NCBI RefSeq assembly: GCF_000368045.1
Contig: NZ_KB849235.1
Location: 45,108-60,802 of the forward strand
From: Acinetobacter johnsonii CIP 64.6
Lineage (GTDB): Bacteria; Pseudomonadota; Gammaproteobacteria; Pseudomonadales; Moraxellaceae
Direction: 5' to 3'
DNA: 15,695 nucleotides
Part shown: piece after piece, positions 6,050 to 15,695 of the stretch
How the letters are laid out: each line of letters opens with the position of its first letter
Numbering within the stretch: the stretch's first letter is position 1
Translations under genes and position numbers: made by a program
The notes under the pieces: model-generated
Databases searched by the model: none
What the model saw: only the letters and a program-made list of their open reading frames with translations
What the model was told of the DNA's origin: nothing

Positions 6050-7011
6050 TTGATGTACTGGTTGAACAACCGAACGCTTTTGAATTTATTCAGGCCACGC
6101 GATTACTACGTCATGCGGAGGCTCCCCATGCTCAAAAAGAAGGGGATTGGGCAAAGCAATTTAAGTTTCATAGTTCACTGAATCTTAATTTTCCGAATGC
6201 AGAAATTGAGAGTTTGACCCTTGACGAAGAAAAAATTCACTTAACCAACTTAATGATTGGTTTAACTGGGATTCAGGGCACCTTACCGTATAGCTATACC
6301 AATAAAATTAAACAAAGTGCGCGTATACAACGGAATGAAACACTTCATTTTTTAGGTTTATTTAATCACAAGCTCACTGCGCAATATGTGGATGCATCTT
6401 TAGCTTACCATTTACCGATTCGCTATGAGATTGAGCAAGAAAACCATTACCTCGATATTTTGCATGCACTAAATGGCTATGTGAGTGCTCAACATGAGCA
6501 GCAGGATTTAGATCATTATTTTGCTGAATTCGCTGGATTAATGCAGGGGCAAAATAATACATCACATGCGCTAAAAACCATGCTGAGTTGTGTGTTTAAG
6601 CAACCCTTTAAGATTAAAGAATTTGTTGAAGAGGTCTTTCATTTGTCCCCTGAACAAAGAAGCACACTGGGTGGTAATAATCAATTGGGCATTAATACCT
6701 TTTGTGGAGAAAATATCCGTCAAATAGATGGAAAAATTGAAATAGAAGTTGGCCCCGTCTCATACACCGAGTATTTAAAATTTTTACCCGATCAAGCTGA
6801 GAGTATAAAACTTAAACGATTACTTGCAAGCTGGCTCAGTCCAACGCTTGGGGTGGATTTAAGAATCATCCTGAGGAAAGAGGATATTCAACCGATTCAG
6901 CTGAGTTCAACGATGACCATTGGTTTATCACAAGGCGCTTTTTTAATGCCGATGCCAACTGAACACAATCATGAAACCTGTTATACATTGATGGGGATAG
7001 GGCATGCTTAA
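6013..7011 (+). CDS. tssG: T6SS baseplate subunit TssG
   Basis: ATG at 6013 with GGAG (6001..6004) 8 nt upstream. It overlaps the tssF 3' end by 37 nt. The N-terminal FEFIQATRLLRH motif is typical of TssG. The product is 332 aa. Confidence 0.9.
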   Translation: MRAERWWQDTSIVDVLVEQPNAFEFIQATRLLRHAEAPHAQKEGDWAKQFKFHSSLNLNFPNAEIESLTLDEEKIHLTNLMIGLTGIQGTLPYSYTNKIKQSARIQRNETLHFLGLFNHKLTAQYVDASLAYHLPIRYEIEQENHYLDILHALNGYVSAQHEQQDLDHYFAEFAGLMQGQNNTSHALKTMLSCVFKQPFKIKEFVEEVFHLSPEQRSTLGGNNQLGINTFCGENIRQIDGKIEIEVGPVSYTEYLKFLPDQAESIKLKRLLASWLSPTLGVDLRIILRKEDIQPIQLSSTMTIGLSQGAFLMPMPTEHNHETCYTLMGIGHA

Positions 7012-8431
7012 GCTCTTTATTGGTACTTTGAGCAGCTTGTTGTTGCTTGTTGCAGGAATCGTCATTTTTTATTGGCGAGATATTCAATATGACCCAACTG
7101 GGGCAGACCTGCTCAATTATTTGCTTCTATTTCCACTGATTCTGTGTGTGATTTTATGGTCTCCTGTATTTATTTATCATGCCATTAAAGCCCACCAAAA
7201 GCGCAAAGAGCAACAAAAACAAGCGCAAGTAGAGCAGCATCAGGATGATGACAACCAACAGGCTGAAGCTGTTGAAGTTCAGTGGTTGAACCTGAATATT
7301 TATTCCTCGTCTGCATATAGTGCTTTTGGGGAAAATGACGAGATTCTTGACGAGATTAAAAAATATAAAAGCCCAGAGCTCGATACGCAATTACAAAATG
7401 CCTATGGCTTACCGATGCTGTCTTATCGCATACATGCACTAGATCATGTCATTACAAATCAGGACGATGGTGAAGTCGTTGATCATCCGCGCCATCTGCG
7501 AATTCAAGCTCTGATCGAGCATCAACTAGAGCAACATGCAGAAACATTGTGGCAAGTCTCGCAGCATTTAAAGCAATCGGCTTTATTTTATGACAGTGAA
7601 TTGGCCTATGAATATCGTATGCATCCGGCATGGATTGATCCTACGAGTGAATATGATAGCAATGAACCAGAGGAACAACCTGATGTGCAGCAGGTTGCTA
7701 AATTAAACCGTATCAATATACATATGCTGCTGCCTGAATCGATGTTACATGCTTGGAATGAAGAACAAAGCAGTGGCGTCGTACAGGATTATTTAAGTTC
7801 ATTAGGCGTGATTACGCAGCAAATTCATCTTGAGCACCATTATTTCAGTCAAGAAACAGCCTATAAAGATTGGATGCTGTTATTGGAGCAAATTTCTCAG
7901 CAGTCAGAGGAAATCACGTTCATCCTGAATGTAGATTCTGAAATTGACCAAGAACTGCTTGATGAAAAAACATGGTTAACCGACCATTACTTGCCTGCTG
8001 AATATGCCTCTAGTTGGTGCTTAGCATCATCTTCTTTACCATTACTTGATATCAAACCCTTAAAACAACTCAAGATTGCACTAAACGAGGCCAATCTTGC
8101 CAATCATTTTGAATCCCCACCGATGAAGCAATTAGAACAATTTAAAGATATTCAGCCTTTTGTGCTGATGCTCGATGATATTACAGACATTCAAACCATG
8201 AAAAAACTTAACCAAATTTTCGATCGAAGTGGGATTGAATTGCATCACTTCATTCATACCAAACAAAGCTTTGGACATACGCAGCATTTGGCCAAAGTAT
8301 TTGGATTTATGTTGAGTATGCATTTGCCTGATGAGCTGATGGCGATGATTTATAGCACTGATCAATTGTCTACACATTGTTTTCTACATGCGTGTGAAGA
8401 CAGTAATATCCCTGTAGAACCAACCATTTAA
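7004..8431 (+). CDS. asaB: AsaB-like Acinetobacter T6SS-associated membrane protein. It has two N-terminal TM helices and a large acidic domain of unknown function
   Basis: ATG at 7004 overlaps the tssG stop (ATGCTTAA; TAA at 7009..7011). The hydrophobic segments LFIGTLSSLLLLVAGIVIFYW and LLNYLLLFPLILCVILWSPVFIYHAI are followed by a charged, Gln-rich linker (KRKEQQKQAQVEQHQDDDNQQAEA) and about 380 acidic residues with no motif I recognise. Its position between tssG and tssM matches asaB in Acinetobacter loci. Confidence 0.7.
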   Translation: MLKLFIGTLSSLLLLVAGIVIFYWRDIQYDPTGADLLNYLLLFPLILCVILWSPVFIYHAIKAHQKRKEQQKQAQVEQHQDDDNQQAEAVEVQWLNLNIYSSSAYSAFGENDEILDEIKKYKSPELDTQLQNAYGLPMLSYRIHALDHVITNQDDGEVVDHPRHLRIQALIEHQLEQHAETLWQVSQHLKQSALFYDSELAYEYRMHPAWIDPTSEYDSNEPEEQPDVQQVAKLNRINIHMLLPESMLHAWNEEQSSGVVQDYLSSLGVITQQIHLEHHYFSQETAYKDWMLLLEQISQQSEEITFILNVDSEIDQELLDEKTWLTDHYLPAEYASSWCLASSSLPLLDIKPLKQLKIALNEANLANHFESPPMKQLEQFKDIQPFVLMLDDITDIQTMKKLNQIFDRSGIELHHFIHTKQSFGHTQHLAKVFGFMLSMHLPDELMAMIYSTDQLSTHCFLHACEDSNIPVEPTI

Positions 8432-12280: not shown

Positions 12281-12316
12281 TTTCTCGAAAGTGGCTAGGT
12301 TGTAAGGAGTATTGCG

Positions 12317-13273
12317 ATGGATGAACTGCGTACCTTAGCTTTATATTATGGAAAATGTCCTGCACGTGGTGATTTCTTAAAAACACGCGGCCAGTATGCC
12401 TTAATTCAACTGATTGATCAGTGGATTACTGAAGCATTAGAACATGCCATGCAATCAGAGGGATTTAGTCAAGCATATGAAAAGCTACCTTCATTAGACT
12501 TTTTTATTGCCAATCCACAAGAAAATAATTTTCTTGTGGCAAATTTGATAGCCAGTCACGATAGTTCTGGTCGTCAATTTCCAATGGTATTGAGTCATTT
12601 ATTAGAGATTGAAAACAGTTTTGATAATCTTATTTATGCGCCATATCGCTATAAGCAAACTTTAATCGACTTATTTCAAAAGAATCGTGTGGTACGTTCG
12701 ATACGTGACCCCAATATCGTGCTCGATAAATTATCTAAATTAAATAATGAGATACAGGTTTTTAATCACAGCGAAGTTTCGGCATTTTATGAACACCATA
12801 CGATACATTCATTTGCTCAATTACTAAGAATGAGCAGTTATGAGCTTGCACAAAGCATGATTGGACTCGGGTTATTGTTACAACCCGTTATTCAACATGG
12901 TACTAGTCGCTTAACTAAAGTGTTGATATTACCTATTAATAACTCTAGCTACTGCTATGAAATTGCAGCTTTTTGGGTCAATCTAATCAGTTTTTTTATT
13001 CAAAATCAAAATGCTGAGCTTCTGATAGGGGTTTTACATAGCGAAAAACCGGTACTGCTTTTTGGCTTTCAAGGGGCAGATATTATGACCTTAAGTGAAA
13101 TTTTCACGCAAAAGTTAGATTCAGATCACTGGGTTTCATTGGTCCAAGCCAATTGGATTGATGCATATTTAGAGCAAAATGCCGGTTTGGCAACGCTGGA
13201 GCAAGCTTTGTGTGAGCGGCAATTGAGCTTAATACAAGCTGTGAAACTTTTTAAAAAAACTTTTATAGATTAG
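12317..13273 (+). CDS. tagF: T6SS-associated protein TagF (DUF2094/ImpM family)
   Basis: ATG at 12317 with AAGGAG (12304..12309) 7 nt upstream. The N-terminal [16 protein letters not shown] matches the hallmark TagF motif (GKxPxxGDF). The product is 318 aa and sits directly after tssM, as in many T6SS loci. Confidence 0.85.
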
Positions 13274-13279
13274 TAAAAT

Positions 13280-14044
13280 ATGAAAATAAATCATAGATTT
13301 AAGTCGAATAAATGGCTGCTGACTTTAACGTTGGTTTTGAGCGTGAATGTATGGGCTGAACCGATTATTGTTGAAGGTGTTGTTCCAAATGATGCTAGTA
13401 AGCAAATCATTTTAAACAAGATGTATAGTGTTTATGGCGCTGACCAAGTGATTGATAAAATAAAGGTTAAAGCAGTTAATGCTCCAAATGGTTGGAGTGA
13501 ATCTGTTGCGAATATGGTGGTTCCAGAGTTAAAAAAAGTTCACCAAGGTAAACTTTCTGTACGTGGTACGCAAATGGAACTTAATGGAAAAATATCGAGT
13601 TCAAATGAAGTTCAGCCAACAACAAACTTATTCCAAAGTCTAGTAACGCCACCATATCGATTAAATGCACAGCTTTCTGTCAATCAGGCTGAACAGCAAA
13701 TTATAGATGAAGCGCTTAAAAACAGAATTATAGAATTTGAATCTGGCAGTGCGGTTTTGGCTGCGAATGGGACTCAGATCTTAGATGAAATGGCGGTGGC
13801 TCTAAATAAGGTTGGTGGGAAAAAGGTCAAAATTATCGGACATACAGACAGCTCAGGTGACGCCGCAAAGAATCTTGTTTTAAGTAAAGAGCGTGCTGTA
13901 GCTGTGAAAAATTATTTGATCAATAAAAGTATTGCAGCAGAACGCTTAAGTGTCGAAGGATTGGGCTCAAACAAACCTGTTGCTGATAATGCAACTGCAG
14001 ATGGTCGTAAGAAAAACCGTCGAATTGAATTTGATGTGATCTAA
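13280..14044 (+). CDS. tagN: TagN-like T6SS-associated OmpA-family peptidoglycan-binding protein (exported)
   Basis: ATG at 13280, 6 nt after the tagF stop. The signal-like N-terminus is KSNKWLLTLTLVLSVNVWA/EP. The C-terminal OmpA_C-like domain is IEFESGSAVL...IIGHTDSSGDAAKNLVLSKERAVAVKNYL...GLGSNKPVADNATADGRKKNRRIEF. The N-terminal half has two BON-like segments, judged by pattern only. Confidence 0.85.
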   Translation: MKINHRFKSNKWLLTLTLVLSVNVWAEPIIVEGVVPNDASKQIILNKMYSVYGADQVIDKIKVKAVNAPNGWSESVANMVVPELKKVHQGKLSVRGTQMELNGKISSSNEVQPTTNLFQSLVTPPYRLNAQLSVNQAEQQIIDEALKNRIIEFESGSAVLAANGTQILDEMAVALNKVGGKKVKIIGHTDSSGDAAKNLVLSKERAVAVKNYLINKSIAAERLSVEGLGSNKPVADNATADGRKKNRRIEFDVI

Positions 14045-14094
14045 GTTATTTATAAAAAGCTACATCATCAAGTGTAGCTTTTTATAAATAACTT
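14043..14094. terminator. Perfect 22-bp-arm palindrome; bidirectional rho-independent terminator ending the T6SS operon
   Basis: AAGTTATTTATAAAAAGCTACA (14043..14064), an 8-nt loop TCATCAAG, then TGTAGCTTTTTATAAATAACTT (14073..14094). All 22 positions were checked as complementary. The core AAAAAGCTACA/TGTAGCTTTTT gives a U-run on either strand. It overlaps the tagN stop codon (14042..14044). Confidence 0.75.
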
Positions 14095-14096
14095 AT
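14091..14096. repeat. Left copy of the putative 6-bp target-site duplication (ACTTAT)
   Basis: ACTTAT at 14091..14096 is identical to ACTTAT at 15578..15583. The two copies bracket the IS inverted repeats. Confidence 0.55.
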
Positions 14097-14097
14097 T

Positions 14098-14120
14098 GTT
14101 ATTCCAAAGTAGAAATGTCC
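14098..14120. repeat. IS terminal inverted repeat at the transposase 3' end
   Basis: GTTATTCCAAAGTAGAAATGTCC. A second, subterminal copy CCAAATAGAAATGTCC lies at 14131..14146. Confidence 0.7.
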
Positions 14121-14145
14121 TACCTTAAAACCAAATAGAAATGTC

Positions 14146-15519
14146 CTATATGGACATTTCCAAGTCAAGCACAGGATTTAGATTTCGTTGTTCAATCGCT
14201 GTTTTCTGTGCACGTCTGCTTGGCATCTTTTGAGAACGATTACGTTTGTTTTGCTGTTCCAGTTCTTCATGCTGTTGTTGGATATGATTCAGAACAGCAC
14301 TCAACCGTTTATTCTCAACAATCTCTCGCTGATTCAGCTGACTTAATTTATCGAAGAGGCTGTAATTGATCTTTCGGCTATTATGCATGATGGCTACAGT
14401 ACCATCCGGGTATTCCAGGAACTCAAGATACTTACCGATCAACCTCTGATTTTCTTCGGTGTTTTCCAAGAGATATACGCATTTATCATAAGTAATCGTC
14501 AGGCTATTCGTGACTCTGCGGGGTTCACGCCAGGTAAAAATATCATCTAATTGCTCGGCTGTTTCAGTGACAGAGCGGTGTAAGTTCTTAGGATTAAAGG
14601 CCATCTTTGCAAACTTGAGATTGAACTGCTCAATAAAGCAGGGCAACCACTTATTCGCATCTGCAATCGAACTGATACCTTCCAGACGCATCTCCTTAAT
14701 CAGACGATCCTGAAGTGTCCTGTTGGCCCGTTCCACACGTCCTTTGGCCTGCGGTGAATTGGCGAAGATGATATCGATATTCAGGGTGCTGAGTACACGT
14801 CCAAACTGGGTAATCTTGGTGTCTTTCTTGCTGCTTTGATTCACTCTAAAGACTGAATGTTTGTCGCTGTAAAACGCTAAAGGCTTACCGTGCTGTTCGA
14901 CATATAAACGTGTTGAAATCATATAGTCAAAAGTTGATTCTGACTCACAGAAGCGTAAATGCTGTAATTTGCCTGTGGCATCATCAATGAACACCAGTAG
15001 GCAGCATTTAGCAGCGCGTCCTTCAAACCAGTCATGGTGTGAGCCATCAATTTGGATCAGCTCACCAAAGCAATCCCGGTTGTAACGAGGCTGATACGGG
15101 CGCTTCAGGCGCTTGGATCGAGGAATCCATAAGTCAGCTGCAATCATCCAGGAACGCAGGGTTTCTACTGAAAGATCGAATCCATGCACGGTGGTGAGCT
15201 TTTCATGCGCTAAAGTGGGTCCGAAACCATGGAGTTGGTCAGAAATAATATTGAGGCATTTGAGTCTGAGTTCTTCAGGAAGTTTGGAATTGCTGATTTG
15301 GCCACGACCGGCATGGGCTAATGCAACTGGACCTTGGGCTTTGTATTTCTGCAGTAAGCGTCTGATCTGACGTTCTGAAATATGAAGTAGCTGAGCAGCC
15401 TGGGATTGAGTTATGCGTTGATCGCAGATTTCCTGCAAGACCGACAATCGTTTAAGTTCTTTATCCGACATAGACACCAACATATCAAACCGTCCGCTAA
15501 GGAAATCGCAAAAGTGCAT
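14146..15519 (-). CDS. DDE transposase, IS1202/ISNCY-family-like (N-terminal HTH plus rve-type integrase core)
   Basis: The maximal ORF is 457 aa. The likely true start is ATG at 15471 (MSDKELKRLSVLQEI..., the opening I recall for IS1202-group transposases) or at 15483. The HTH is ITQSQAAQLLHISERQIRRLL. Candidate catalytic residues lie in ELIQIDGSHHDW, AFYSDKHSVF and AKGRVERANRTLQDRL (a D,D,E arrangement). Confidence 0.88.
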   Translation of the reverse strand: MHFCDFLSGRFDMLVSMSDKELKRLSVLQEICDQRITQSQAAQLLHISERQIRRLLQKYKAQGPVALAHAGRGQISNSKLPEELRLKCLNIISDQLHGFGPTLAHEKLTTVHGFDLSVETLRSWMIAADLWIPRSKRLKRPYQPRYNRDCFGELIQIDGSHHDWFEGRAAKCCLLVFIDDATGKLQHLRFCESESTFDYMISTRLYVEQHGKPLAFYSDKHSVFRVNQSSKKDTKITQFGRVLSTLNIDIIFANSPQAKGRVERANRTLQDRLIKEMRLEGISSIADANKWLPCFIEQFNLKFAKMAFNPKNLHRSVTETAEQLDDIFTWREPRRVTNSLTITYDKCVYLLENTEENQRLIGKYLEFLEYPDGTVAIMHNSRKINYSLFDKLSQLNQREIVENKRLSAVLNHIQQQHEELEQQNKRNRSQKMPSRRAQKTAIEQRNLNPVLDLEMSI

Positions 15520-15554
15520 ATTCTAAAAGCGGACATTTTTACTTTGGAGAAACC

Positions 15555-15577
15555 GGACATTTCTATTTTGGAGTTAC
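15555..15577. repeat. IS terminal inverted repeat at the transposase 5' end
   Basis: GGACATTTCTATTTTGGAGTTAC. A subterminal copy GGACATTTTTACTTTGG lies at 15531..15547. Confidence 0.7.
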
Positions 15578-15583
15578 ACTTAT
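15578..15583. repeat. Right copy of the putative 6-bp target-site duplication (ACTTAT)
   Basis: It is identical to 14091..14096 and lies exactly between the IS end and the XerC arm of the dif-type site. Confidence 0.55.
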
Positions 15584-15611
15584 ATTGCGTATAATGTATA
15601 TTATGTTAAAT
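15584..15611 (+). other. dif: XerC/XerD recombination site (dif-type, 28 bp)
   Basis: ATTGCGTATAA-TGTATA-TTATGTTAAAT compared with E. coli dif GGTGCGCATAA-TGTATA-TTATGTTAAAT. The XerC arm matches 8/11, and the 6-bp spacer and 11-bp XerD arm are identical (25/28). The XerC arm is also 10/11 to the ATTTCGTATAA arm common in Acinetobacter pdif sites. Confidence 0.8.
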
Positions 15612-15663
15612 AGCATATCTAAGACTGTAGCCTACGCAACCTCAGTTGGTGCTACAGCTCGAC

Positions 15664-15695
15664 ATTGTGAATCTCAGTAAAATTATATTCACAAT
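15664..15695. repeat. 9-bp inverted repeat ATTGTGAAT-N14-ATTCACAAT at the window edge (function unknown)
   Basis: ATTGTGAAT (15664..15672) is the exact reverse complement of ATTCACAAT (15687..15695). The window ends here, so the context is missing. Confidence 0.3.

Follow-up and report, generated by a model that had tools for sequence, protein, structure and literature searches.

The stretch of Acinetobacter johnsonii CIP 64.6 DNA analysed here (15,695 nucleotides, hereafter the window) carries, at the end of a type VI secretion system (T6SS) gene cluster, an insertion sequence (IS) of the ISAjo2 type that lies on the XerC side of a 28-bp dif site and is separated from it by one copy of a 5-bp target-site duplication. 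Very probably this IS was transposed into the A. johnsonii chromosome by the Xer-site-specific route that is known for its family. The geometry, the duplication and the empty site are read directly in the DNA, and every other genomic copy is arranged in the same way; the Xer-site-targeted transposition proposed in the original prediction, made from the sequence of the window, is supported by an exact empty site in relatives and by the dif-like sites found beside all five chromosomal copies and seven of eight sampled plasmid copies. To judge from the sequence, a filamentous phage and its deletion derivative have independently made use of the XerD side of this dif.

Anatomy and boundaries of the insertion sequence

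The IS, the inverted repeats at its left (IRL) and right (IRR) ends and the adjoining target are described by the following features, given in window coordinates:

14097..15578, minus strand: ISAjo2-type IS of 1482 bp (IS1202 family, ISAba32 subgroup / cluster 1) with the ends TGT...ACA, delimited by a repeat search, by full-length plasmid matches and by five chromosomal copies identical at 1482/1482 positions
14097-14120: IRR end of the IS
15555-15578: IRL end of the IS, proximal to the transposase
14092..14096, no strand: left copy of the target-site duplication CTTAT, of which the contigs without the IS (L129, L130 and L131) have one copy and the window two
15579..15583, no strand: right copy of the target-site duplication CTTAT, the sole DNA between IRL and the XerC arm, as seen in the sequence, the empty sites and the other copies
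14133..14148, no strand: at the IRR end, the inverted repeat's inner part in a second, subterminal copy (repeat pairs D10, 94%, and I6, 100%)
15531..15553, no strand: subterminal second copy of the inverted-repeat core, IRL end (repeat pairs I3, 87%, and D2, 88%)
14146..15519, minus strand: transposase gene, the single open reading frame (ORF) filling the IS, 457 aa from the first ATG; the NCBI call is 441 aa (14146-15471)
15584..15611, plus strand: chromosomal dif, also the left junction (attL) of a prophage array, 28-mer ATTGCGTATAA-TGTATA-TTATGTTAAAT
15584-15594: XerC arm of dif, ATTGCGTATAA
15595-15600: spacer of dif, TGTATA
15601-15611: XerD arm of dif, TTATGTTAAAT

The hexamer ACTTAT is present both at 14091-14096 and at 15578-15583, as had been read in the sequence, and its right copy directly abuts the XerC arm of the dif-type 28-mer at 15584-15611. 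The anatomy that was built on this hexamer, i.e., an element of about 1481 bp whose inverted repeats measure 23 bp and whose duplication is the 6-bp ACTTAT, is very unlikely. It has in its favour the literal repetition of ACTTAT, the duplications of 6 bp and apparently of 7 bp that are encountered in the family (tattga at the chromosomal copies L132/L133, caggtt in the plasmid p18TQ-X3, atttttg in pAJ1044-2) and the value '5 (6)' given for ISAjo2 in PMC10132070; against it stand the ends of the element. All 13 copies that were read at their ends, five chromosomal and eight plasmid, start with TGT and end with ...TTACA before unrelated flanks; since this holds whatever the flank, A15578 is part of the IS, and therefore the element measures 1482 bp, its inverted repeat 24 bp and its duplication the five bases CTTAT. 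Moreover, a 6-bp duplication would read ACA-ACTTAT, from which the sequence differs, and the empty site, compatible with both readings, does not rescue the sixth base. The terminal inverted repeats (14097-14120 / 15555-15578) are real but of 24 nt, with 21/24 positions matching (88% complementary in the repeat finder), and the distance of exactly one duplication between the IS end and dif holds once the duplication is corrected to CTTAT.

In a megablast search with 14097-15578, all 1482 bases align to plasmid copies, and 163 of 323 matching plasmid records span at least 80% of the 1482-bp query, all of them from Acinetobacter. The subterminal repeat at the IRR end (14133-14148) is a putative extra transposase-binding site; the same subterminal-repeat architecture is described in PMC10132070.

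Empty sites in relatives lacking the insertion sequence

Both the A. johnsonii chromosome CP065666.1 and UFRV01000006.1 match the window with 100% identity. When metagenomes were scanned for the predicted empty junction, three contigs were recovered, L129, L130 and L131, which read ...AAATAACTTAT joined to ATTGCGTATAATGTATATTATGTTAAAT with a single CTTAT; the junction that had been forecast is therefore found exactly in three IS-free relatives, and the 28-bp dif is intact in all these empty sites. In particular, L129 and L131 have 93-95% identity to the T6SS flank, a junction reading ...TTTTTATAAATAACTTAT joined to ATTGCGTATAATGTATATTATGTTAAAT and, beyond it, DNA that is found 7.6 kb further right in CP065666; L130 has 98.4% identity to the T6SS flank and shares this IS-free junction, beyond which a related phage is found. 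The three contigs establish that the IS was inserted in situ with duplication of CTTAT, leaving the 28-bp dif unaltered.

The same contigs bear on the possibility that the IS arrived along with its dif-like site, carried in a plasmid-derived dif module or in the DNA of a phage of the type that integrates as an integrative mobile element exploiting Xer (IMEX). In fact, the four other copies in CP065666 lie at pdif-type sites (spacers GGTGTA, GCGCCA and CGCGTA; XerD arm mostly TTATGTTAATT) that are possibly plasmid-derived, and phage DNA abuts the dif of the window. Such a joint arrival is nevertheless highly improbable: the T6SS terminator, the single CTTAT and the same dif are contiguous in IS-free relatives, both in L130, which has the phage, and in L129 and L131, which lack it, the IS is flanked by chromosomal sequence cleanly duplicated over 5 bp, and the IS lies on the chromosomal XerC side, outside the phage unit.

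Copies of the insertion sequence at other Xer sites

In CP065666 the 441-aa transposase is encoded five times, on copies that lie at about 0.31, 1.71, 1.96, 2.29 and 2.29 Mb. A dif-like site is located outward of IRL, XerC arm first, in all five, at a distance of 5 bp in three copies, 6 bp in one and 15 bp in one; the expectation that further copies would also sit beside a Xer site is therefore borne out in a constant orientation, with four of the five at 5-6 bp. The individual copies are as follows:

L135 (copy of the window): 5 bp, CTTAT; site ATTGCGTATAA-TGTATA-TTATGTTAAAT
L133: 5 bp; site TATGCGTATAA-GCGCCA-TTATGTTAAAT
L134: 5 bp, TCAAT; site ATTACGTATAA-CGCGTA-TTATGTTAATT
L132: 6 bp; site ATTTCGTATAA-GGTGTA-TTATGTTAATT
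L136: 15 bp, no duplication; site ATTTCGTATAA-GGTGTA-TTATGTTAATT

The duplications at the copies other than that of the window are TCAAT, ACAGA and TATTGA. On plasmids, seven of the eight sampled copies have a correctly oriented dif-like site 5-7 bp from IRL, and the longer duplications are those of p18TQ-X3 and pAJ1044-2. Since the targeted sites differ in both arms and spacers, their common denominator is the Xer site and not a DNA word, and this variability argues against a simple recognition of DNA sequence.

A chance adjacency, due to the accidental insertion beside dif of an IS with no target preference, could account for the one independent insertion that is seen at this site. It is made vanishingly improbable by the recurrence of a same-orientation dif-like site within 5-15 bp of IRL among the chromosomal (5/5) and plasmid (7/8) copies, by the expected number of dif-type patterns in 15.7 kb, which is 0.00, and by the published surveys (PMC10132070; 10.1101/2022.12.17.520857), which concur with targeting.

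Two of these loci have further peculiarities. The identical copies L132 and L133 (CP065666 about 2,291,546-2,295,021) are inverted with respect to each other, and their IRLs face a 512-bp segment in which a tautomerase-family gene lies between two inverted dif-like sites; by its sequence, this segment looks like a chromosomal 'dif module'. The duplications of the two copies (tattga, acaga) are swapped between them, which points to an inversion by recombination between the two IS. In the A. seifertii plasmid pAs1069_a (L137 1583-1682) the IS has no duplication; about 30 bp from it there is an inverted pdif-like site, ATTTAACATAA-aatctc-TTATGCGCAGT, on whose XerC side a different IS1202-type element has its IRL, 5 bp away.

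The transposase and the family assignment

The transposase contains N-terminal helix-turn-helix (HTH) domains followed by an integrase-core-like region, and it matches the NCBIfam model ISNCY_2 (NF033594) with E=2.9e-146 and 487 bits, the cut-off being 250. The 441-aa form has 95.7% identity to its counterpart encoded by the ISAba71 reference copy (pS30-1, KY617771) and 96.6-97.5% to the counterparts in seven other plasmid copies; at the DNA level the IS has 94.3% identity to the ISAba71 reference copy in pS30-1, and its closest plasmid copy in PLSDB is that of pAs1069_a (97.1%). An exact look-up of the 457-aa ORF gave no match because public gene calls use the 441/445-aa start, and the 441-aa form was matched. 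On the strength of the ISNCY_2 match and of these identities to ISAba71, the IS is assigned by its sequence to the ISAjo2 type, within the IS1202 family and the ISAba32 subgroup named in the original prediction. With 94.3% identity to ISAba71 and at most 97.1% to the PLSDB copies, it may represent a distinct isoform.

The transposase gene is oriented away from dif, toward the T6SS terminator hairpin; because of this direction, transcription continuing into the T6SS genes would run antisense to them and is probably blocked.

Proposed route of insertion

In the proposed route, a single DDE-type transposase would insert the element beside a XerC/XerD site, on the side of the XerC arm and with IRL facing the site. 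The sequences show the insertion to be orientation-specific and the 5-bp staggered cut to lie directly outside the XerC arm; as a consequence, one copy of the duplication (CTTAT) is left between IRL and dif, with the 28-bp dif intact. The target would be recognised through XerC, or XerCD, bound at the site rather than through its DNA sequence; that the bound proteins guide the transposase is inferred from the literature and from the analogy with Tn7. The Tn7-like ends of the element (TGT/ACA, repeated binding sites, 5-bp duplication) suggest, by the same analogy, a TnsB-like chemistry, and a TnsB-like model was published for the ISAjo2 transposase (PMC10132070).

Several observations weigh against this account. 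Target recognition through bound XerC/XerD is, both in PMC10132070 and in bioRxiv 10.1101/2022.12.17.520857, a proposal. The transposase matches the Pfam family rve_3 with E=1.5e-4, below the cut-off, and has a partial similarity to IS481, and a PDB sequence search with it gave no match. Copy L136 (CP065666 about 0.314 Mb) is 15 bp from its site and has no duplication, a distance that may be due to a rearrangement or a small insertion after transposition, and the plasmid copy of pAs1069_a has no correctly oriented site at IRL. Finally, all the contigs with an identical OmpA-domain protein, encoded by the last gene of the T6SS cluster, also carry the IS; as these IS-bearing contigs may all be one strain sequenced repeatedly, the insertion at this dif is probably a single event.

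The dif site

Searched with a dif-type pattern whose XerC arm is degenerate and whose spacer is free, the 15.7-kb window gives a single match, against an expected 0.00 in 200 shuffles. The 28-mer itself occurs in at least 120 gammaproteobacterial genome contigs, mostly from outside Acinetobacter, with a single match in each of the 80 loci tabulated; among the matches listed there are two Acinetobacter loci, neither of them with the T6SS flank. In its spacer and its XerD arm it is the same as Acinetobacter dif sites already published (PMC10132070). In CP065666 the site lies at about 1.71 of 3.598 Mb (47.5%), counted from the start of the record, and the GC skew is +0.069 over the 14 kb on its left and -0.041 over the 11.9 kb on its right in a phage-free contig, a weak test since a low-GC island lies just to the right.

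Two further dif-like sites of the locus, B and C, are located at 13377-13404 and about 19972-20000 of L126, the part of CP065666 that includes this region, and the site beside the IS (site A) is the left junction of the prophage array that they also bound. Site A could accordingly be a phage-chromosome hybrid attachment site, with the working dif elsewhere, for example at the far end of the array. This is unlikely, in that site A is base-for-base identical to the dif of phage-free relatives and to the Gammaproteobacteria consensus, while the other two sites, with their divergent XerC arm ATGTCGCATAA and 7-nt spacer CGTAATT, are unlikely to serve dimer resolution. The sequence comparison makes site A (15584-15611) the probable working dif.

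To the right of dif or of the prophage array (L129 1867-7144; L126 20134-20765) extends a low-GC stretch of 28-34% GC, which begins with a gene of about 445-449 aa weakly matching the phage-integrase family PF00589 and may be a genomic island beside the terminus. At window 15573-15602 a sigma-70-like hybrid promoter directed toward the phage can be read, with the -35 element GTTACA in the IS end, an 18-nt spacer and the -10 element TATATT in dif; promoter-like matches in the region are no commoner than in shuffled sequences, and this hybrid is given no weight.

A filamentous-prophage array on the XerD side of dif

To the right of dif the DNA is no longer chromosomal; a filamentous-prophage array starts there:

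15612..15695, minus strand: first 84 bp of filamentous-phage (IMEX) DNA, part of a forked attP hairpin; it recurs 1072 bp further in L126 and is absent from L129 and L131

The tandem array occupies L126 12333-20000 (CP065666) and is bounded by the three dif-like sites A, B and C. A small unit of 1072 bp ends in site B, which reads ATGTCGCATAA-CGTAATT-TTATGTTAAAT; a large unit of 6596 bp ends in site C, identical to B, after which the chromosomal flank of the empty sites is found. The large unit includes genes for a Zot-like protein (phrog_197, 7e-68), a Rep protein (phrog_453, Rep_trans initiator, 3e-80), Coat_B, DUF2523 and a putative adsorption protein, and this inovirus unit has no integrase among its genes; no DUF3653 / XafT-like domain was detected in the small phage genes. 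The small unit is made up of the large unit's initial 378 bp and its terminal 714 bp, with 99.7% identity and, to judge from this, is an internally deleted miniphage in which the attachment region is retained together with two small genes. In the phage collection the only match was with A. baumannii phage M02, in its zot gene, with 7% coverage and 72.9% identity. In L129 and L131 the array is absent and dif is joined straight to the far flank. The inovirus genes, the flanking dif-like sites and the absence from empty sites together qualify the array, on sequence grounds, as an IMEX.

Site A has an inverted dif-like partner 96 nt on, 13 bp past the end of the window, reading TTTCGGCATAA-CGTATA-TTATGTTCATT on the minus strand. 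The attachment region, L126 13377-13534 and again 12305-12462 (whose first part is window 15584-15695), thus contains two inverted dif-like sites 96 nt apart, and as single-stranded DNA it is predicted to fold into a forked hairpin in which these sites pair (dG -37.9 kcal/mol, z=-8.6). The hairpin is kept in four Acinetobacter versions (CP065666, L130, A. modestus and Acinetobacter sp. LH3_13), with compensatory changes in 10/51 pairs.

At the junctions of the array TGTATA, the spacer of the chromosome, is still joined to the chromosomal XerC arm, and CGTAATT, the spacer of the phage, to the XerC-like arm of the phage; because each spacer stays with its own XerC arm, the crossover is placed at the boundary between spacer and XerD arm. 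The CTXphi-type junction of XerC (top-strand) exchange, in which a phage spacer lies beside the chromosomal XerC arm, is not encountered, and the junctions bear the signature of a XerD (bottom-strand) exchange. The phage genes are on the strand opposite to the dif top strand, an orientation that fits the splicing of a viral strand into the bottom strand of the chromosome; the same junctions also arise from a double-stranded attP when the crossover is on the XerD side. The miniphage would be the latest arrival if site A, the regenerated dif, is where new phage DNA enters.

The IS and phage events are independent, since L130 has the phage without the IS, L129 and L131 have neither and the source strain has both. 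It is tentatively put forward, as a possibility rather than as the favoured outcome, that unrelated parasites, the IS on the XerC side and the phage array on the XerD side, exploit a single dif and that the phage follows a perhaps undescribed IMEX mode, in which a CTXphi-like hairpin attP and XerD-exchange junctions would regenerate the dif recognised by the IS.

Hairpins of attP type are also located on the XerD side of dif in A. modestus CCM 8639 (L088 5671-7101), in Acinetobacter sp. LH3_13 (L014 882-1043) and at L130 8887-9041, and in Table 5 of PMC10132070 the 10-nt right flanks of two chromosomal dif targets (agaatatcta, agaatatccg) resemble the phage flank agcatatcta. Because of these related hairpins at other dif sites and phage-like flanks, co-occupancy of dif by IS and phage may be common yet overlooked.

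The host locus

The locus lies at about 1.70-1.72 Mb of the 3.598 Mb of CP065666. Upstream of the IS, Pfam labels on genes called in L125/L126, which are 100% identical to the window, identify Hcp, gp25/TssE-like, TssF, TssG, IcmF/TssM, TagF and an OmpA-domain protein; the IS is therefore at the end of a T6SS operon, as first described. The last features of this cluster are:

13280..14044, plus strand: last gene of the T6SS cluster, encoding the 254-aa OmpA-domain protein (Pfam labels in L125/L126)
14042..14095, no strand: bidirectional terminator-like hairpin formed by a perfect 23-nt inverted repeat (14042-14064 / 14073-14095; 100% complementary)

In the IS-free relatives this terminator-like hairpin leads almost directly into dif. 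Between the TssG and TssM genes, an ORF of 475 aa (window 7004-8431) has no Pfam family on record.

Comparison with known systems

The targeting by this IS is the already published behaviour of an already described IS group, and the case is one more clean, well-controlled instance of the published rule that places these elements at 5 bp from a XerC arm, be it of dif or of pdif; it offers an empty site as well as five copies within a single genome. ISAjo2-type IS were described by Harmer, Pong & Hall (2023, PMC10132070) as elements of 1482 bp with 24-26-bp inverted repeats, TGT/ACA ends, internal repeats, a transposase of 441-457 aa and a 5-bp duplication. The likeness of the present element to ISAba71, ISAjo2, ISAso2 and ISApi2 (cluster 1) includes the length of 1482 bp, the 24-bp imperfect repeat, the IRL placed 5 bp from the XerC arm and the fixed orientation; the difference from the ISAba71-type cases in PMC10132070 is the host locus, here the end of a T6SS cluster in A. 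johnsonii. The ISAba32 subgroup of Siguier, Rousseau, Cornet & Chandler (10.1101/2022.12.17.520857) is the ISAjo2-type group, with repeats of 5-6 bp and IRL always on the XerC-arm side; its targets include the chromosomal dif at the replication terminus, and several copies may be present per replicon at different Xer sites. Nothing material differs from this subgroup, of which the present IS is one more example. A chromosomal dif with the spacer TGTATA had been regarded, incorrectly, in the original prediction as a departure from the known pattern; both surveys report IS1202-type insertion beside pdif and chromosomal dif, and the target in Acinetobacter sp. CP028561, listed in Table 5 of PMC10132070, carries the identical 28-mer, ATTGCGTATAA tgtata TTATGTTAAAT.

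With Tn7 the IS shares TGT...ACA termini, repeated transposase-binding sites in the ends, a 5-bp duplication and an oriented insertion beside a conserved essential site. In contrast to Tn7, it encodes a single protein, without homologues of TnsA, TnsC, TnsD or TnsE, and its target selector is presumed to be the host XerC/XerD bound to dif.

The case shows that an IS can lie 5 bp from the probable working dif and leave the 28-bp site unaltered, and that this dif still accepts, or had already accepted, IMEX integration; PMC10132070 makes no mention of a co-resident prophage array, and the words 'phage' and 'filamentous' occur 0 times in it. The part worth follow-up is the hairpin-bearing IMEX array with its XerD-side junctions, together with the occupancy of dif on both sides. 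The array resembles CTXphi in its inovirus genes without an integrase, in its tandem arrangement at dif and in the forked hairpin of two inverted dif-like sites, and TLCphi in the XerD-side crossover; it differs from TLCphi, which is XerD-first and uses XafT, in that no XafT-like domain was detected in it. The combination of hairpin and XerD-side junctions matches neither of these classes as summarised in PMC9226527 and, if true, would add a variant to the known hijacking of XerCD by mobile elements and provide a natural system where a single site brings transposase-Xer and phage-Xer interactions together.

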